This document shows positions 1-21,712 of a stretch of DNA of 32,000 nt, one piece after another. The DNA comes from Candidatus Hermodarchaeota archaeon (GTDB lineage: Archaea; Asgardarchaeota; Heimdallarchaeia; Hodarchaeales; Hodarchaeaceae): NCBI GenBank assembly GCA_048886185.1, contig JBHLKY010000014.1, positions 60,001 through 92,000 of the forward strand, written 5' to 3'. The position numbers and the translations under genes were made by a program. Within the stretch, counting starts at the first letter, position 1; every line of letters starts with the position of its first letter. The notes beneath the pieces were generated by a model that saw only the letters and a list, made by a program, of their open reading frames with translations, ran no database searches and had not been told where the DNA came from.

Positions 1-1026
1 AAATTGACAGCAAGCTTTTTTATCTAATTCTTTCATTTTAATTTCTTGACCATAATATCCTAGTTGAAGAGGCCTTAATATTGCCAAATTAATATTTTTT
101 TCAAGGATTTTCAGAGCTTCTAACGACATAATTTCGTTGTTATAATTGAAACATGTTGGAGACACAATGGTTGAGACTTGATATTTGTTAGCAACTTTTT
201 TACAAACCTGTTCACAATATATCTGACAGTATAAACACAAAGAAGAATGGTGTTTGAACAACGCTAAAAGCTCTTCTATGCGTACAATAGTTATGTCTTG
301 ACTAAACAGCAATTGTATATGTTCTAGGAAATTTTCCTCAGATGTTTTTCCAGTTTTAAAAAAAATTGGGGTAATTTTAACTCCTCTTTTCTTCATTAAC
401 CAAGCTGCTAATATTGAATTGAAGTTAGGCTTTAGTAAAGCAATCGCTGTGCCTTGAGATCGAGATGGTAAGCCATCCATCCCTTTATAAATATGTGAAT
501 AGATAAAACATAATATCCCACTAATATCCAAGTGAATTTGAAATTTTGGCGCTTCAAGATCTACTTTGATTCCTTCCAACGGATAAGCTAAGATCTCAGC
601 GCCAAGTTTACTGGCAATTTCTATTGAGGAGAATGGGTGAGACCCCTCACGACGAGCCCTTATAGCAAAACTAGTATAAGGTTGAATTATATTAATTGCT
701 TCTGACTTTCCTGCAGAAAGTATGGAATTTTCTGTTGCTTCAACAACGAGCACGGGACTTACAGAAGACACTCCACTGATTGAGGTAACGATACTGAATG
801 CAAGTTTATCAAGATCAATGCTCGATTCTGAATAGATGATTAATCGATTTCGATAATTAAGAATATTAAAGGTAAATATATGCCGAAAACGAGCTTTTAT
901 ATTATGTTGAAGCTGGTCTATCATATATCGACGAGTCTGTCGGCTTTTTATCCCTAGTTCACCACCAATACGGATTAATAATACACGCTTGTTTATCAAG
1001 AAAGAGTATTTCGCGTTATATGCCAT
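1..1026 (-). CDS. ThiI-like protein (THUMP + PP-loop fold) with degenerate PP-loop; runs off the window edge, 3' end missing
   Basis: Not in the ORF track because there is no stop in the window. Hand translation from ATG at 1026 is open to position 1. It shows the N-terminal LLIRIGGELGIKSR, THUMP-like SFAIRARREG and KVDLEAP, then DGLPSRSQGTAIALLKPNFNSILAAWLMKKRG (canonical GGLP.G.QG..L.LLSGGIDS.VAA.LMMKRG), CLYC and LRPL. Confidence 0.8.
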   Translation of the reverse strand, partial: MAYNAKYSFLINKRVLLIRIGGELGIKSRQTRRYMIDQLQHNIKARFRHIFTFNILNYRNRLIIYSESSIDLDKLAFSIVTSISGVSSVSPVLVVEATENSILSAGKSEAINIIQPYTSFAIRARREGSHPFSSIEIASKLGAEILAYPLEGIKVDLEAPKFQIHLDISGILCFIYSHIYKGMDGLPSRSQGTAIALLKPNFNSILAAWLMKKRGVKITPIFFKTGKTSEENFLEHIQLLFSQDITIVRIEELLALFKHHSSLCLYCQIYCEQVCKKVANKYQVSTIVSPTCFNYNNEIMSLEALKILEKNINLAILRPLQLGYYGQEIKMKELDKKACCQF

Positions 1027-1119
1027 ATTGATGCCTTACTTGAAGACCAGTCTTATTATGATGCAAAGAGCTTAGATTCTCTACAAACCTATACTTCAAA
1101 GGATTCTTAACCTCAAGAC

Positions 1120-1192
1120 AGCTAGCGAATCAGAGTAACTATAAGATTTCATTGCTTAGCTCATCCTTGTCAGGTTTCATCATTTCGCAGCC
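1120..1192 (-). ncRNA. Candidate double-guide box C/D sRNA (LSU rRNA 2'-O-methylation guide)
   Basis: Minus strand reads GCGAA-AUGAUGA (C, 1183-1177)-AACCUGACAAGG-AUGA (D')-GCUAAGCA-AUGAAAU (degenerate C')-CUUAUAGUUACU-CUGA (D, 1133-1130)-UUCGC. The GCGAA/UUCGC terminal stem is present and both guides complement conserved LSU rRNA segments. Confidence 0.8.
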
Positions 1193-1212
1193 GTGGAATC
1201 AGAATATAGGAT

Positions 1213-1638
1213 TTAAAGCTCTTCATCTAGCTCCTCGTCTTCTTCTTCAGTGAGCTCTTGGGAGGCCCGTATTAATTCTGCAGCATTAAATTGTTGTTCA
1301 AATCTCCGCCAAACTGCTGGTTTTAATTTTTCATTAAGGCTTTTAATTTCCTTTTCTACTACCTTTTTAGCTTTTTCACGATCTTCAGGTAACTCTGTGA
1401 AACCCCATGTTGAAGCAGGGGGAGCTTTTGGATCTTTTTTTATTAAATATACAGAATTTTCTTGTTGTTGAAACGAAAAAAATTCAGGTTGAACAAGGGG
1501 GCAATCAATATATCTACATGTTCCTGTAACAGTAAAGAGATGATTGCAGCGCTTTTTCGGAGATGTGGCAGCCGATTTATAGGCACATTGCCCATTTGCG
1601 AGGTATCTCCAGGTGGGGATTAACTGAGATGATTCCAT
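1213..1638 (-). CDS. Mak16 (L28e/Mak16 family) homolog
   Basis: W-x7-C..RCNHLFTVTGTC-x4-CPL..VYLIKK..P..TW..KAK..RRF matches the eukaryotic Mak16 N-terminal domain (FCS..FCRNEY.VTGLC.R.SCPL..YLYMK..LWE..KAL..QRF). It has four Cys (18, 31, 41, 46) and an acidic tail. Confidence 0.8.
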   Translation of the reverse strand: MESSQLIPTWRYLANGQCAYKSAATSPKKRCNHLFTVTGTCRYIDCPLVQPEFFSFQQQENSVYLIKKDPKAPPASTWGFTELPEDREKAKKVVEKEIKSLNEKLKPAVWRRFEQQFNAAELIRASQELTEEEDEELDEEL

Positions 1639-1691
1639 TTCTTGTCACACAATTATAGGTCATATAGTAGCTTTTAATACTAGCTTGTAAC

Positions 1692-1795
1692 AGCCGCTGG
1701 TGGGATTTTCATACATGATTCATCAGGATCCTATATCTTGAACCCACGACCAACAGATTACAAGTCTGTCGCTCTACCAACTAAGCCACAGCGGC
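1692..1795 (-). tRNA. tRNA-Thr(UGU) with 31-nt intron in the T-loop (1706-1736, position 59/60)
   Basis: Acceptor stem GCCGCUG/CAGCGGC and anticodon arm ACAGA-CUUGUAA-UCUGU. The T-arm GUGGG-UUCAAG/U-CCCAC is interrupted by an insert that forms a clean BHB (central helix UUCA/UGAA, bulges AGA and AAU). CCA is not encoded. Confidence 0.92.
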
Positions 1796-2309: not shown

Positions 2310-3602
2310 CTAATTTGTTCGTTGTTCTTTCCCACCTTCAATAACTCCCCACCCTATTAGTCTCCATCTACGATCTATTTGACGGCTAATTGCGACTCGG
2401 GTGCCTAATTCAGCACAAACAGGAAGACGAAGATCTACTTGAATACCCTTTTTACTGGTTTTTGTTACTTTACCAACGGTTTTGGCAGTAGCAACGCTCA
2501 ACATAAGGTTTTCATTTAATTCAATGTCATGAACTAAAGTCTGAACTTCACTCCCAACGACACGCTCTAAAAGATGTCTATCAAGTTCTAAAAGATTCCA
2601 AACTGGTGGAAGTTCTTCAGGATATCCAACTACATGCCCTACGAGAGAATCACTTTTCGTTAAAGAGGGATCAACTTCTGTTCCAATTCCGATAAGCCCT
2701 CCTGGTAATGCGGTCTCTAGTTCACCAAACCCACTTCTTAAGCTTACAATTTTTGTGCGGATAACTTGCCATTTACTACCTTTTCGATTTCCAGGCAGTA
2801 TTTCGATTTCATCGTTAACTGAGAACTTTCCTTGAACAATACTTCCTCCCACAACTCCGCCCTTCAAGTTTGTAGGAGATTGTCCTGGTCTATTCACATC
2901 AAAGGAGCGAGCTACTAGCATCCGAGGTGTAATACTTTCATCTCGTTTTGGTGTTGGGATCTGCTCCTCAATATTTTGAATTAACATATCAATATTAGTG
3001 TGGTGAATGGCGCTAATAGGGATTATGGGAGAATTTTTGGCACTAGTTTTTGAAATAAACTTTACAAGATCTTTATAATTTTGAATTGCCGCCTTTTCAG
3101 AAACTAATTCAATTTTATTTTGACATAAAATAACTTTCTCCATCCCTATGATCTCCATTGCTGCAAGATGTTCACGAGTTTGAGGCATAGGAACTCTTTC
3201 ATTAGCTGCAACGACTAAAAGGGCTCCGTCCATTATACTTGCTCCAGATAGCATGGTTGCCATTAGTACCTCATGGCCTGGAGCATCAACAAATGCAACT
3301 CGACGAAGGAGAGTTGTTTCTTTCCCACAGATGGGGCACTTTTCTTGAGTAGTATATTTTGCTGGACTCTCACAATCAGGACAAGCCCGGAATTCTGTTT
3401 CAGCATATCCTAATCGGATAGAGATTCCACGACGGATTTCCTCACTGTGTGTGTCGGGAAATTTTCCCGTTAGGGCTTCGGTTAAAGTTGACTTTCCATG
3501 GTCTACGTGCCCAATCATTCCTATTGAGATCTCTGCTTGTTTGGGCTTTTCTGGGGATTCAGTCTTTTTTTTGGCTGGAGATCTTCTTTTCTTTTTTGTC
3601 AT
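2310..3602 (-). CDS. eif2g: Translation initiation factor 2 subunit gamma
   Basis: GHVDHGKST, RGISIRLGY, CxxC/CxxC zinc ribbon, DAPGHE, NKIE and C-terminal RWRLIGWG. Confidence 0.97.
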   Translation of the reverse strand: MTKKKRRSPAKKKTESPEKPKQAEISIGMIGHVDHGKSTLTEALTGKFPDTHSEEIRRGISIRLGYAETEFRACPDCESPAKYTTQEKCPICGKETTLLRRVAFVDAPGHEVLMATMLSGASIMDGALLVVAANERVPMPQTREHLAAMEIIGMEKVILCQNKIELVSEKAAIQNYKDLVKFISKTSAKNSPIIPISAIHHTNIDMLIQNIEEQIPTPKRDESITPRMLVARSFDVNRPGQSPTNLKGGVVGGSIVQGKFSVNDEIEILPGNRKGSKWQVIRTKIVSLRSGFGELETALPGGLIGIGTEVDPSLTKSDSLVGHVVGYPEELPPVWNLLELDRHLLERVVGSEVQTLVHDIELNENLMLSVATAKTVGKVTKTSKKGIQVDLRLPVCAELGTRVAISRQIDRRWRLIGWGVIEGGKEQRTN

Positions 3603-3620
3603 AAGAATCCACGAAATGAT

Positions 3621-4001
3621 TCATAACAATTCTTCTATAGCTTTGCTGCTTTCGTCTCTTTCAAGGATTTTAAGATTTATCTGATAAATATCTTCGCTAA
3701 TCATTCTACCACGAACGCGTTTTCGTCTTCTTTTCCCTTTTCTATCTGGTTTATATCCAACTCCCCGATGGCCAATAAGTATTCGTTTTGGTGTTGCACC
3801 TTCGACTCCAGGAGCCATAGGAAACCCAGAATGATCAGACCCCCCTGTTATTTTAAATGAATAGCCATCAAAACCTATGAAACTTCCTTCTAACTCATCC
3901 CCAACTTTTTTTCCGATTAAATGACGAGTCAGTGCATCATCATCTATTTCTTTCTTGTAACTCTGCTTTCCATCAGCTAAATTAAGTTGAAATCTGACCA
4001 T
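3621..4001 (-). CDS. rps6e: Ribosomal protein S6e
   Basis: LIGKKVGDE, KITGGSDHSGFPM, RRRKRVRG and QINLKI. Confidence 0.96.
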   Translation of the reverse strand: MVRFQLNLADGKQSYKKEIDDDALTRHLIGKKVGDELEGSFIGFDGYSFKITGGSDHSGFPMAPGVEGATPKRILIGHRGVGYKPDRKGKRRRKRVRGRMISEDIYQINLKILERDESSKAIEELL

Positions 4002-4190
4002 TTTATCGTCTCATATCTTTTTATTGAATAACTTATTAGAATGACCGTGGTGATCTCTATCTAGATGTTCTTTAGGTTATACGTGTCATATCGTGTCAAA
4101 TCTCTTTCTATTCTTAATAGTTCTTATAATTCTCGAACAGCATTACATGTTATTTTCCACCCATTTTTAATCCATTAATATTCATATTAT

Positions 4191-4218
4191 TAGATTAATA
4201 GGGATAGATTAATAGGGA
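4191..4218. repeat. Perfect 14-bp tandem duplication (TAGATTAATAGGGA x2)
   Basis: Read directly at 4191-4204 and 4205-4218 in the aIF5B-rps6e spacer. Confidence 0.9.
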
Positions 4219-4322
4219 AATTACCTAAGAGATTTTTTATTTATAGTAATCAAAGTTTAAAGCAGATTTTATACTCTTAACGATCGTTTTTTAAGAAATA
4301 GTTGATGGATCAGTCCATCTAT

Positions 4323-6116
4323 TCATAAACCCCAATACTTATTCACTGTTCGCCGTTTAATCTCGATCAGCTCTGTAAGAGCGTCCATCTCTGATCCAGA
4401 AAGCATCTTTTGTTCTGTAATTTTCCGTGCATCAGATTCAGGGACGTCAACCCACAACTCATCTCCTTCTTTAATCTGACGTCCCGCGGTTGGGCCACGA
4501 ATAGCTACTGCTACTTGATCGCTCACTTTAGCTTGAGGAATATTTTTTCCACTATCTTGGATTTGTAACAAGAAACCGATTCTTTTATTCTCTCGATTAA
4601 TTAGATTGGTTTGAGGCGTTAACAGACCTGCTAGTACCTCAACTCCTAATATACATGGTTTACTTTGTCTAAATACATATGGAAGAACTTTAATTTTACT
4701 TGGACGAACAATACCTTTAAGCGCCTCCTCCTCAAGACGCTGTTGAATCTCAAAACGATGTGCCTCATATTCTTCTGCTAAACGATAAATTATGTCATTC
4801 TGAATGATTGGAATGTCTGACTTTCTTGCTTCCTCTTGTGCATCTAGAAGGGCATTTATTCGAAATCCTAAGATAACTCCATAATATTCATTTTTCTCTT
4901 TGGATAATGATGCCTGATATACGTCTTTTTTCGTAATGTCTCCTACTGCTGCAAAACGAATTTGGATATTTGAATCTCTAAGAAAATTTACAAGCGCTTC
5001 CAAGGAACCTAGGGTATCAGCTTTAACAATAACTCCTGCCTCATCAGTTTCAACAAGTATCCTTGCTAATTCGTCTTCAATTTTTGAAATTGCTTTTTCT
5101 ACATCTTTATCTTCGACCACATAGAGCGAAGAGCCTGCAATAGCCTCATCAATATTAGGAGCTGTCAATTTAACTCCAATTGCAGCTACTGCTTTATCAA
5201 CGCTATCAAATTTTTTCCGTGGATCACGAATTTCATCTAAATCCTTTGGAAGTAGGATTGCACGAACATAGGTAGAAATAGGCCCATTTTTTCCAGCTAG
5301 AACTATACGTGAATTTTGCTTGATGGTACCATCAAAAAGAATTACATCTAGAGTAGTTCCTAGTCCCACTTCCTTTTTCACTTCCAGGACAACCCCTTTT
5401 CCTTTGTCTAAATGCAATTCCAACTGTTTTTTCAAGTATTGCTCTGTAAGACTGGCAAGAACAAGGAATAATTCAGGGATACCCTCTCCTGTTATTGCAG
5501 ATGTAGGAATGATAGCGATTTTCTTAGCAAAGTTTTTTATTCTATCAAATCTATCTGGTTCAAGATTATAATGACTTAATTCAGTCATGATTTCATAAAT
5601 AATTGATTGAAGAGCTTCTAATGTGCCACTAGACTGTTTTGACAGGGATTTCACTAATGTGAGGTCAGGATAACTTTTCCAGCCTGGAAGACGATCGATT
5701 TTATTAGCTGCTATTAAAAATGGTACTTTCTGTTTAACTAAAATCCTTAATGATTCTACAGTTTGAGGTTGTATCCCTCGCCGAACATCAATTACCAATA
5801 TAGCAAAATTAGCAGAAGAAGCCCCTCGACTTCTAAGATTATAAAAAGATGAATGGCCTGGTGTATCAATGATGAGAATCCCAGGGATTTTCATTTTTCT
5901 TTTAGATTGTTCTAACAAGGTTCCACAAAGAGCAATAACAGTTTCGATAGGGAAAAAACTTGCGCCTATATGTTGTGTTATTCCCCCTGATTCGCGAGCT
6001 TGTACTGCTGTCCCCCGAACTTTATCTAATAAACTAGTCTTACCTGAATCCACATGACCAAGAATGACCGTGATGGGACTTCGCATTTGACCTATTTCTT
6101 CCTCTTTGTTTGTCAA
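4323..6116 (-). CDS. infB: Translation initiation factor aIF5B (IF2)
   Basis: RSPITVILGHVDSGKT, GGITQHIGAS, DTPGH, NKID and DTLGSLEAL. The start is either TTG at 6116 or a downstream ATG. Confidence 0.97.
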   Translation of the reverse strand: MTNKEEEIGQMRSPITVILGHVDSGKTSLLDKVRGTAVQARESGGITQHIGASFFPIETVIALCGTLLEQSKRKMKIPGILIIDTPGHSSFYNLRSRGASSANFAILVIDVRRGIQPQTVESLRILVKQKVPFLIAANKIDRLPGWKSYPDLTLVKSLSKQSSGTLEALQSIIYEIMTELSHYNLEPDRFDRIKNFAKKIAIIPTSAITGEGIPELFLVLASLTEQYLKKQLELHLDKGKGVVLEVKKEVGLGTTLDVILFDGTIKQNSRIVLAGKNGPISTYVRAILLPKDLDEIRDPRKKFDSVDKAVAAIGVKLTAPNIDEAIAGSSLYVVEDKDVEKAISKIEDELARILVETDEAGVIVKADTLGSLEALVNFLRDSNIQIRFAAVGDITKKDVYQASLSKEKNEYYGVILGFRINALLDAQEEARKSDIPIIQNDIIYRLAEEYEAHRFEIQQRLEEEALKGIVRPSKIKVLPYVFRQSKPCILGVEVLAGLLTPQTNLINRENKRIGFLLQIQDSGKNIPQAKVSDQVAVAIRGPTAGRQIKEGDELWVDVPESDARKITEQKMLSGSEMDALTELIEIKRRTVNKYWGL

Positions 6117-9191: not shown

Positions 9192-11324
9192 TCATGACTC
9201 CTGAAGTTCACTAATTAGTTCTTCCACTAATACTTTTGGAGAGGGAAATCGGACACGATTAGCAAATAGTTCTTGACGCTGAATCGTTTCTCCTTGTACC
9301 TCTTGAGTTTGTAGTTGTACTCGTCCCTGAATCAGAATCGTTTTTCCTTCTGCTTCTTGTTGGACTATTGTGAAAATTTCATCATCACTCAGACCATTAT
9401 CTATTAATTTTTGAATATCATTACTCCCTAGACCTGTAAGAATTTCTCCTGAAAGACCAAAGAAAACTGTTCTTATTGTGCTTGTACCATCATCAACTGT
9501 CCCTGTGAGTCGAAATCGAATTTGTGATTGAACAATCTGATGTTCTTGACAAAGCCACCCTGCTTCTGTTTCTATTACTTTTTTTCGACATTGAGAACAA
9601 GCATGATAATACGGACTCTGTTGAAAGAGTCTGACAACTTTTCCAAGAACTTCTACCAAAGCTCCATCTTCCTCTTCTGATAACTCTGAAAGTTGAACTT
9701 TCTGATAGTTTGGTATTGATTGGGGGGTAATTGGTTCTTCTTCAGTGATTTCAATACTTCTTAAAGCAACTGGAACTCGTGATGATGGTCTGAGATGACT
9801 TTGGGGGGATAAGTGGATTTCCAATGAATCATTATCTTTTTGCCGAATCCTCCCAAAAAATATCTTAACATACTTCATCTCTTTCTCTCGAATCGAATTT
9901 AACTCATCAACTGTATCATCCCACGCAACCACTCGTATTGATCCTGAAGAATCTTGTATTGACATGTGAGCGACGCGGCCTGTACTTCCATCAGATCGAT
10001 TAAATTCTCTCTCCTCGGAAATATTCTTAATTACTCCTTGTACACATCCTAAACCTTGCGAAGCTTTAATTTCTGTGATGTTCTGAACAGGCGGATCCTC
10101 AGGAATTTCAGAAGCTTTAAGTGGGATAAAATTTGTGTTAAATAGTGAATGTAACTCAATTGTCTTATATCTTGACATATTAACACGTAAGTTCTCTACG
10201 CGAAAGGGTTCGTCTCCTAATTCGTCGAATAATGGAATGGCCTCATTCCAAAGTACTAATGTTGTCACACCCGTTTCATCAAATATGGTTGCTCTTTTTA
10301 CAGAACCTGTTGACCCATCATTTCGTGTGAAATTGCTTAATTTACTTACAGGGCCCTTTCGGGCAATCGTCGTGATGATGACATCACTCGGTTCTATTTC
10401 AATTAGTTTTTTTTCCATTACTTGCCGTTCAGTAAGTTCTGAAGCTTTGTCTTCATCAATATGTGGTAAAGTTTTATGACCAATCTTTGTGAGGTAAGTC
10501 AGACGGGTAGATTGTAACTCTGGGTTTCCTTCTCGATCTAATTTTACATTTGCAGCTTGGATCAAGATTTCGTCTCCTGGAGTGAAATTAAATGCTAATT
10601 CAGCGCGATCATCCCAGAGGACCATTCGTCGTGTTGTTCGTACACCCTTGAGAAGTAAATTAGAAACACGTCCTTCTGTCCCATCAGCTCGGTTAAAGGT
10701 CGTAAGATTACCTATTTTTAATACAGTAGCTTTAGTATCAATTTCTTTCATCTCCTCATCCAAGGAGTCTATATTGAGGATTTCATTCTCAGGGTCAGGA
10801 TAAGTGTCTGTTTCCGCCTCTGTGTCTACTTCTACTACTCCCCGATCGCCAACATGAAGTTCTAGCTCCTCATCTCTCCCTAATTTAGTATAACCTTGCT
10901 TAATTTTAATGATAGATCCTCTTTCTATCTTCTTTTCTGTAATAAAACGAGCCATTGTTCCCCAAAGAAGCGTTCTGATAGTATCGGTGCCGTCATTCAA
11001 CAGAATAGGAGCTAGAATCCCTTTGGTTCCCTCTTTTTGGAATTCAATTGGATGATAAATACGCGTTACAATTGCAGTAAGACTCACTCCTGATAAACCT
11101 GGTTCCATTTTCTTAAGACTTTCAATTGTAAGTTTAGGTCTTTTTTTAAATTCAGGACGTCCCAGTGGAACATCAAGATCTTTCGCAATAATATGAGCTG
11201 CTGCAATGTCATTTACAAAGAATCCTAATTCTTTTTGTTTTTCTTCAATTTTCTTTTTAATTTCAATTCTAGAAAGCCCTGTTTTTTGAGAGATTTTTTG
11301 TATAATTTCTTCTATATTACTCAA
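9192..11324 (-). CDS. rpa: Replication protein A (multi-OB-fold, Zn-finger)
   Basis: Repeated OB motifs (F.R.DG..G.V...D.TG..LW) and a C-terminal OB with YHACSQC...CQEH. TTG start preceded by GAGGAG. Confidence 0.9.
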   Translation of the reverse strand: MSNIEEIIQKISQKTGLSRIEIKKKIEEKQKELGFFVNDIAAAHIIAKDLDVPLGRPEFKKRPKLTIESLKKMEPGLSGVSLTAIVTRIYHPIEFQKEGTKGILAPILLNDGTDTIRTLLWGTMARFITEKKIERGSIIKIKQGYTKLGRDEELELHVGDRGVVEVDTEAETDTYPDPENEILNIDSLDEEMKEIDTKATVLKIGNLTTFNRADGTEGRVSNLLLKGVRTTRRMVLWDDRAELAFNFTPGDEILIQAANVKLDREGNPELQSTRLTYLTKIGHKTLPHIDEDKASELTERQVMEKKLIEIEPSDVIITTIARKGPVSKLSNFTRNDGSTGSVKRATIFDETGVTTLVLWNEAIPLFDELGDEPFRVENLRVNMSRYKTIELHSLFNTNFIPLKASEIPEDPPVQNITEIKASQGLGCVQGVIKNISEEREFNRSDGSTGRVAHMSIQDSSGSIRVVAWDDTVDELNSIREKEMKYVKIFFGRIRQKDNDSLEIHLSPQSHLRPSSRVPVALRSIEITEEEPITPQSIPNYQKVQLSELSEEEDGALVEVLGKVVRLFQQSPYYHACSQCRKKVIETEAGWLCQEHQIVQSQIRFRLTGTVDDGTSTIRTVFFGLSGEILTGLGSNDIQKLIDNGLSDDEIFTIVQQEAEGKTILIQGRVQLQTQEVQGETIQRQELFANRVRFPSPKVLVEELISELQES

Positions 11325-21585: not shown

Positions 21586-21712
21586 CGGATCCGGAGGGAT
21601 TTGAACCCACGACATCCTGGTTACTTCAGGTACCACCTTATCTCAGAATTTTTCAGGATGTTGGTATTACCTTCCGAAGCCAGGCGCTCTATCCATGCTG
21701 AGCCACGGATCC
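21586..21712 (-). tRNA. tRNA-Arg(UCG) with canonical 52-nt intron at 37/38 (21622-21673)
   Basis: Acceptor stem GGAUCCG/CGGAUCC and anticodon arm CCUGG-CUUCGG/A-CCAGG. The BHB has central helix CUUC/GAAG and intron stem AGGUA/UACCU. The T-stem has one U-U mismatch. Confidence 0.93.

Follow-up and report, generated by a model that had tools for sequence, protein, structure and literature searches.

Described Guides to Helices 69 and 71

Helices 68, 69 and 71 of the 23S rRNA (the helix 68–71 region) are documented hotspots of archaeal methylation, and double guides that bridge helices 69 and 71 are a known pattern of this hotspot. Approximately half of the archaeal box C/D sRNAs are double guides, the definition being that both targets lie within 100 nt (Dennis et al. 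2015). sR91 of Ignicoccus hospitalis was detected by RNA-seq and has the predicted 23S targets A2179 and G2211 (Dennis et al. 2015, BMC Genomics 16:632, Additional file 1). The alignment in that paper carries an E. coli ruler, on which A2179 corresponds to A1913 and G2211 to G1945. sR113 of Sulfolobus acidocaldarius was recorded with 32,156 reads and a predicted 23S target at A2179, printed as 'A21779' (Dennis et al. 2015).

The RNA described here is encoded in the window, by which we mean the whole stretch of 32,000 nucleotides that was analysed, from the genome of an Asgard archaeon. It shares with sR91 the order of the parts, which in sR91 are a C box, a guide ending in ...GGCAAG(C) for helix 71, a D' box, a hairpin linker, a C' box, a guide ...AGUUACG for helix 69 and a final CUGA. 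The predicted targets of sR91 are likewise the A1913 and G1945 equivalents. The I. hospitalis RNA differs in belonging to a hyperthermophilic crenarchaeon, in having guides adapted to the rRNA of that organism (GUAACUCUGA, CCUUGCCGGG), and in its D' box, which is CCGA after a 13-nt spacer. Layout and targets are the two grounds on which we infer that sR91 and the RNA in the window are homologous. The D guide of sR113, CUCAGAGUUACU followed by CUGA, stands in the same register as CUUAUAGUUACU followed by CUGA in the window; the sR113 RNA differs in that its other guide has no predicted rRNA target, and it thus acts as a single guide.

As the identical pair is predicted for sR91 and the A1913 site for sR113, the predicted site pair is not new for archaea. 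The novelty lies in the occurrence in Asgard archaea, in how widely the RNA is spread among them and in the evidence of covariation. In the library searched, no paper on Asgard C/D sRNAs was found.

Locus and Anatomy of the sRNA

A box C/D sRNA with two 12-nt guides is encoded at window positions 1118–1194 on the minus strand and is read from the reverse complement. It lies within a 186-nt gap between two minus-strand genes. Upstream of it is the gene for an L28e/Mak16-family protein (1213–1638, minus strand; PF01778, 34.7 bits), a family of eukaryote-type proteins of the ribosome or of 60S assembly, and downstream is the gene for a ThiI/THUMP-like protein (1–1026, minus strand). The L28e/Mak16 stop codon is approximately 19 nt before the sRNA stem on the same strand. 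It is overlapped by the heptamer TTTAAAT (1211–1217, minus strand), approximately 20–30 nt before the sRNA, which is a possible archaeal TATA-like element, judging from its letters and position. The element is retained only in the nearest relatives. The sRNA may have a promoter of its own or may be processed out of the L28e/Mak16 transcript.

Read 5' to 3' on the minus strand, the sRNA begins with the outer 5' arm of an extended terminal stem, ACGGCU (1189–1194), which pairs with 1118–1123 when the flanks are co-folded. The inner 5' arm, GCGAA (1184–1188), was read directly and pairs with UUCGC (1129–1125). The C box, AUGAUGA (1177–1183), was also read directly and fits RUGAUGA. It is followed by the D' guide, AACCUGACAAGG (12 nt, 1165–1176), in which C1169 is the fifth base upstream of D', and by the D' box, AUGA (1161–1164), whose first base is not the C of the consensus CUGA. 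The D'–C' linker, GCUAAGCA (1153–1160), holds a 2-bp mini-hairpin (GC...GC). The C' box, AUGAAAU (1146–1152), is weak, with a retained AUGA core and a degenerate 3' half. The D guide, CUUAUAGUUACU (12 nt, 1134–1145), has U1138 as the fifth base upstream of D, and the D box, CUGA (1130–1133), is canonical and was read directly. The 3' arm of the terminal stem (1118–1129) consists of UUCGC, which was read directly, a bulged U1124, and AGCUGU, which was added by the flank co-fold.

The original prediction had placed a C box, a D' box, a weak C' box and a D box at 1120–1192, closed by a 5-bp terminal stem. All four boxes are present on the minus strand when read directly, and the coordinates are correct, with the parts read out over 1118–1194. 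The 5-bp helix GCGAA/UUCGC is present as described; the full helix is longer, growing in the co-fold to approximately 10 bp with one bulged U and reaching 1194 and 1118. Both guide spacers (C to D' and C' to D) are exactly 12 nt, the criterion for archaeal box C/D sRNAs being approximately 12 nt. The internal boxes, AUGA for D' and AUGAAAU for C', retain their UGA/GA cores and are both off consensus.

A strict box scan of the whole window found no second candidate with rRNA complementarity. The sole other RUGAUGA and CUGA at sRNA distance with a terminal stem (5–6 bp) is at 9332–9388 on the minus strand, and its guides form at most 7–8 pairs with partial 23S, the rRNA compared. This candidate is probably due to chance.

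A gathering-threshold Rfam scan of the window returned no C/D family and only a tRNA. Comparison with the Rfam models SNORD46, snR63 and snR75, which the original prediction had proposed as a check, gave no match even at E values up to 10. The best sub-threshold score for the sRNA was 18 bits, against C/D thresholds of 41–50. This best match was to Drosophila snoR442 (RF01232; 18.1 bits, E 0.15, gathering threshold of 50 bits), with which the sRNA has the helix 69 guide and D box (AGUUACUCUGAU) in common. snoR442 is a fly snoRNA and the match covers the guide and D box only. An Asgard orthologue from another family scored 20.5 bits against snoR442, also below threshold.

The Rfam tRNA (21586–21712, minus strand) is spread over 127 nt, and ARAGORN reports no tRNA anywhere in the window. 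This tRNA probably contains an intron.

Predicted Targets in the 23S rRNA

The host metagenome-assembled genome (MAG; 96% complete, 75 contigs) gave no LSU rRNA match and has no assembled 23S gene; the targets were therefore taken from the 23S rRNA of congeners, namely three same-genus MAG sequences (G016, on a 72-kb contig; G005; G001:C38). The helix 69–71 sequence is identical in the three (...GGGAGUAACUAUAACUCUCUUAAGGUAGCCAUAUGCCUUGUCAGGUAAGUUCUGAC...). At the two target sites it reads AGUAACUAUAAC and CCUUGUCAGGUA, so the rRNA target sequences named in the original prediction are correct for the genus.

The D guide forms 11 contiguous Watson-Crick pairs with AGUAACUAUAA of the same-genus 23S, and the D' guide forms 11 with CCUUGUCAGGU, through guide positions 1–11 in both cases. 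At least nine contiguous pairs for each guide had been asked for when the RNA was first proposed. Both guides have a mismatch at position 12, and most orthologues also lack a pair at position 1 of the D' guide. In structural work on archaeal C/D RNPs, the outermost guide positions are spared from pairing. Eleven contiguous pairs with approximately 6 kb of same-genus 23S are reached by 0.14–0.28% of shuffled guides or random 12-mers of the window.

Counting five bases upstream of each box (N+5), U1138 of the D guide is paired to the second A in GUAAC, the equivalent of E. coli A1913 in the helix 69 loop, and the partner of C1169 in the D' guide is the G in CCUUG, the equivalent of E. coli G1945 in helix 71. 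Both are the nucleotides to which the guides had originally been assigned. The two predicted targets are 32 nt apart on the same rRNA, with G1945 downstream of A1913, well inside the 100 nt of the double-guide definition. The proposal of a double-guide box C/D sRNA in an Asgard genome thus held, with both guides fitting their sites.

A further 23S sequence from a same-genus bin was rejected as a target reference. G001:C57:307-3242 (L001) is a complete 23S on a 4.7-kb contig, and with it the guides form 9+2 and 7+1 pairs only. It differs from the three other same-genus contigs, and its helix 69–71 region differs even from that of G001:C38 in the same bin. From these differences, G001:C57 is probably a mis-binned contig from another archaeon.

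Conservation within the Genus

A blastn search with a 116-nt region as the query identified one orthologue in each of the other genus genomes (21/21), giving a genus alignment of 22 sequences. The gene order aIF2-gamma, PIN_9, L28e/Mak16, sRNA, ThiI-like is maintained across all of the genus genomes, and the check for synteny among relatives that had been suggested at the outset was therefore positive in all 21. The identity of the neighbouring proteins within the genus is 56–90% for L28e and 42–62% for the ThiI-like protein.

Across the 22 orthologues, positions 11–1 of the D guide are invariant (11/11 columns) and position 12 varies. Positions 12–2 of the D' guide are invariant in 10/11 columns, and position 1 varies freely. 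The D box is invariant (4/4 columns), and the C box is invariant in 6/7, the seventh column being only A or G and remaining within RUGAUGA; the conservation of these boxes in relatives was one of the points on which the original prediction was to be judged. None of the 31 flank columns is invariant, and the linker also varies. The D' box is AUGA or UUGA in 20 orthologues and degenerate in G016 and G001 (GAAA or GUGA), and the AUGA core of C' is invariant in all 22.

RNAalifold on the 22-sequence alignment returned no terminal stem and only a spurious internal fold, because the register of the stem shifts in the alignment; per-sequence co-folding was therefore used. This showed a terminal helix of 5–12 bp in all 22 orthologues, in sequences that differ. 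The stem covaries, for example as CAGCUGCGA/UCGCUAGCUG, AUGAGCG/CGCUCAU and GGGCG/CGCCC. The aligned sequences indicate purifying selection on the guides and boxes of the sRNA, while the flanks and the neighbouring proteins diverge.

Spread and Covariation across Asgard Archaea

Beyond the genus, the blastn search with the 116-nt query gave no convincing match, and pattern searches tied to the rRNA sequence were therefore needed. An exact double-guide pattern run over 185,579 species matched within the genus alone; since it demanded both TGATGA and YGACAAG, this is no test of absence elsewhere. A pattern for the helix 69 guide and its boxes (TGA-N6-ATAGTTAC-NN-TGA) matched 147 of 400 Asgard genomes, against approximately 20 matches for the reversed control. 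By family, the matches were 21/21, 2/2, 6/6, 5/5, 5/5 and 87/135.

The flanks of 28 matches from many families have a common layout, which for f10, f11, f14, f15, f18, f25 and f28 was read from a single representative each. It consists of a C box, a guide ending in (C/U)(C/U)GRCAAG, a D' box, a hairpin linker, a C' box, (U/C)AUAGUUAC-N and a D box. The D'–C' linker is a 4–6 bp hairpin with covarying arms in other Asgard families, and the register of the D' guide relative to D' is retained in many of them. In family f20, the GACAAG form is present in 49/135 genomes, and the linker hairpins covary.

The helix 69–71 region of the rRNA was read for 95 of the pattern-matching genomes, and the guides change with it. 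An rRNA helix 71 of GUCAGG is accompanied by the D' guide CCUGAC, GUCGGA by UCCGAC, GCCGGA by UCCGGC, and GCCGGG by CCCGGC. In helix 69, rRNA UAUAAC goes with guide UUAUA, and rRNA UAUGAC with guide UCAUA. Family f3 has the rRNA CUAACUAUGAG, in which helix 69 starts with CUAAC; the ATAGTTAC form of the guide was found in 1/31 of its genomes and the ATAGTTAG form in 26/31. The ATAGTTAG form is also found in 8/61 genomes of family f31.

The D' guides reach different sites in some families. The pairing site of the D' guide is displaced upstream by 5 nt in f3, which puts N+5 at the G1940 equivalent, and in f31 the D' guide pairs with the GUAGCCAAA region (the 1930s region); some f20 and f19 genomes have other D' guides. 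Because the D guide stays fixed while the D' targets shift across families, the sequences identify the helix 69 guide beside the D box as the stable anchor. Its D' partner addresses G1945 in many Asgard families and is shifted in others. The sRNA in the window is a member of an old family.

These comparisons bear on two readings in which the locus would not be a guide RNA gene. Boxes of only 4–7 nt could in principle come together by chance in the AT-rich spacer between two genes, and no Rfam model scores above threshold; the shuffle statistics, the guides held invariant in 22 genomes and the phylum-wide covariation speak to the contrary, and we regard chance, already refuted by the comparative data, as next to impossible. 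The element could also be a conserved kink-turn that belongs to the L28e/Mak16-family mRNA as part of its 3' untranslated region, such as a regulatory site bound by L7Ae, and not a separate guide RNA. Its start shortly past the stop codon on the same strand would suit this, as would the presence of the neighbourhood in every genus genome, and L7Ae is reported to bind mRNA kink-turns in archaea (PMC5539422). The L28e/Mak16–sRNA pairing is seen in all of the genus genomes and not outside of the genus, where the same RNA stands in other gene contexts, and an mRNA kink-turn has no need for two 11-nt rRNA-complementary stretches that change with the rRNA across families. We consider this explanation very improbable.

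Protein Genes and Proposed Mechanism

The genes for fibrillarin and Nop5 are adjacent on contig 8 of the host genome (PF01269, 263 bits; PF01798, 224 bits), and the genome has two L7Ae-family loci (PF01248). The mechanism by which C/D guides direct methylation is textbook knowledge. By the established mechanism of the archaeal C/D RNP, the RNA transcribed from this locus would be bound by L7Ae at the kink-turn of the C and D boxes and at the weaker C'/D' motif. A Nop5 dimer and two copies of fibrillarin would assemble on the sRNA, each 12-nt guide would pair with the nascent 23S rRNA, and fibrillarin would 2'-O-methylate the rRNA nucleotide opposite the fifth guide base upstream of D or D'. 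The D guide is predicted in silico to select the A1913 equivalent in the helix 69 loop, and the D' guide the G1945 equivalent in helix 71. Binding both sites simultaneously could hold the intersubunit-bridge region together during folding; a chaperone role has been proposed for archaeal double guides. In sum, the C/D RNP would methylate A1913 and probably G1945 of the 23S rRNA, and may help to fold the helix 69–71 region. A search for RNA runs covering window positions 1000–1700 gave none. At an orthologous locus in another family (L087), the RNA-library runs hold long contigs only, which cannot show transcription.

The two guides may not be equal. The RNA could be a genuine C/D sRNA whose methylation activity is confined to the D guide (A1913), with the D' guide merely tethering or chaperoning helix 71 and the C'/D' motif too degenerate to position fibrillarin. 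Since both internal boxes are off consensus (AUGA and AUGAAAU) and D' is degenerate in the G016 and G001 orthologues, D'-guided methylation may be weak or absent. The drift of the D' target in f3 and f31 beside a fixed D guide points in the same direction, as does sR113 of S. acidocaldarius, for which only the A1913 guide is predicted, and conserved guide–target pairing without methylation has been described in published work. Against this, the GA cores of D' and C' are retained in nearly all of the orthologues, the spacer is exactly 12 nt and the C1169–G pair at N+5 is Watson-Crick. The invariance of 10 of the 11 D'-guide positions and the register to D' that many families retain also argue for a working D' guide. 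Given the degeneracy of D' and C', we keep methylation by the D guide alone as an unlikely but credible alternative.

We are highly confident in the wider reading, according to which window positions 1118–1194 on the minus strand are the gene for an archaeal box C/D guide sRNA of an old family, acting in an RNP by the established mechanism with A1913 and G1945 as its targets.

Eukaryotic Counterparts and Possible Ancestry

The E. coli and yeast numberings differ in this stretch by 343, an offset that we take to be constant and by which A1913 is Am2256 and G1945 is Gm2288. The offset agrees with every modified base in the published yeast table. In the published tables, Am2256 of yeast 25S is assigned to snR63 and Gm2288 to snR75; Am2256 is equated with human Am3739 (U46) and Dictyostelium Am2522, and Gm2288 with Arabidopsis Gm2278 (AtU15) and Dictyostelium Gm2554. 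The correspondence with snR63 (human U46) and snR75 that had been claimed in the original prediction is borne out by these tables. Yeast snR63, human SNORD46 (U46) and yeast snR75 direct the same rRNA nucleotides as the sRNA in the window; they differ in being two separate eukaryotic snoRNAs, with one guide each for these sites.

Because the guides must mirror near-universal rRNA over approximately 11 letters, similarity of sequence does not tell descent from convergence, and the idea in the original prediction that the RNA may be a relative of the ancestral state stays conjectural. Since the pair occurs with the same layout both in a crenarchaeon and in many Asgard families, the double guide is likely to predate the Asgard radiation, and an old origin of the pair is plausible from its presence in TACK archaea and across Asgard archaea. 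Both eukaryotic marks are old within eukaryotes. The old marks and the archaeal pair fit an inheritance of the marks; they do not demonstrate a descent of snR63/U46 or snR75 from the RNA in the window, since every guide for these sites needs almost the same 11 letters. In the fullest version of this history, the A1913 and G1945 double guide would be one vertical lineage that predates the TACK/Asgard split, was kept across Asgard archaea including the Hodarchaeales, and was split into or replaced by the snR63/U46 and snR75 lineages in the eukaryotic stem. We offer this scenario tentatively and think it improbable as a whole. If true, Am2256 and Gm2288 would be marks inherited from the archaeal ancestor along with the guide.

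As a rule, archaeal lineages share the hotspot regions of rRNA methylation but not the exact sites (Lui et al. 2018). The helix 69 A1913 guide is an exception, being present in Sulfolobus, Ignicoccus and many Asgard families and changing as the rRNA changes. Eukaryotes, too, are methylated at its target and at G1945, the target of its frequent partner. The A1913/G1945 guide could therefore serve as a marker in tracing the ribosome modifications, and perhaps the guide RNAs, that passed from the archaeal parent to the eukaryotic ancestor. For cultured Asgard archaea, it makes a concrete prediction of what ribosome structures or RiboMeth-seq would show.

Variant Loci in Other Asgard Genomes

A Heimdallarchaeia-class genome carries a 23S gene with an intron-like insertion of approximately 880 nt (L004, G028:C99, approximately 3535–4420). 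The insertion is placed directly after helix 69 (GUAACUAUGACUCU) and before CUUAAGGUAGC, that is, between the two target sites of the sRNA.

The loci of family f20 (e.g., L089, L090 and L098) have the C box AUGAAA(A/G) and not RUGAUGA, and the D box UUGA and not CUGA. The f20 sRNA also has a conserved tail, GGAUUAUA, after the D box. In dozens of f20 MAGs, the contig ends 3.2–3.8 kb away from the sRNA gene, suggesting that assemblies break repeatedly in this vicinity.

At one locus (L085, G182:C77:38400-38850), two helix 69 guide units are found 86 nt apart on the same strand, and in front of the upstream copy stands a D' guide unlike the G1945 type. The sequence of this locus suggests a tandem duplication of the sRNA gene.
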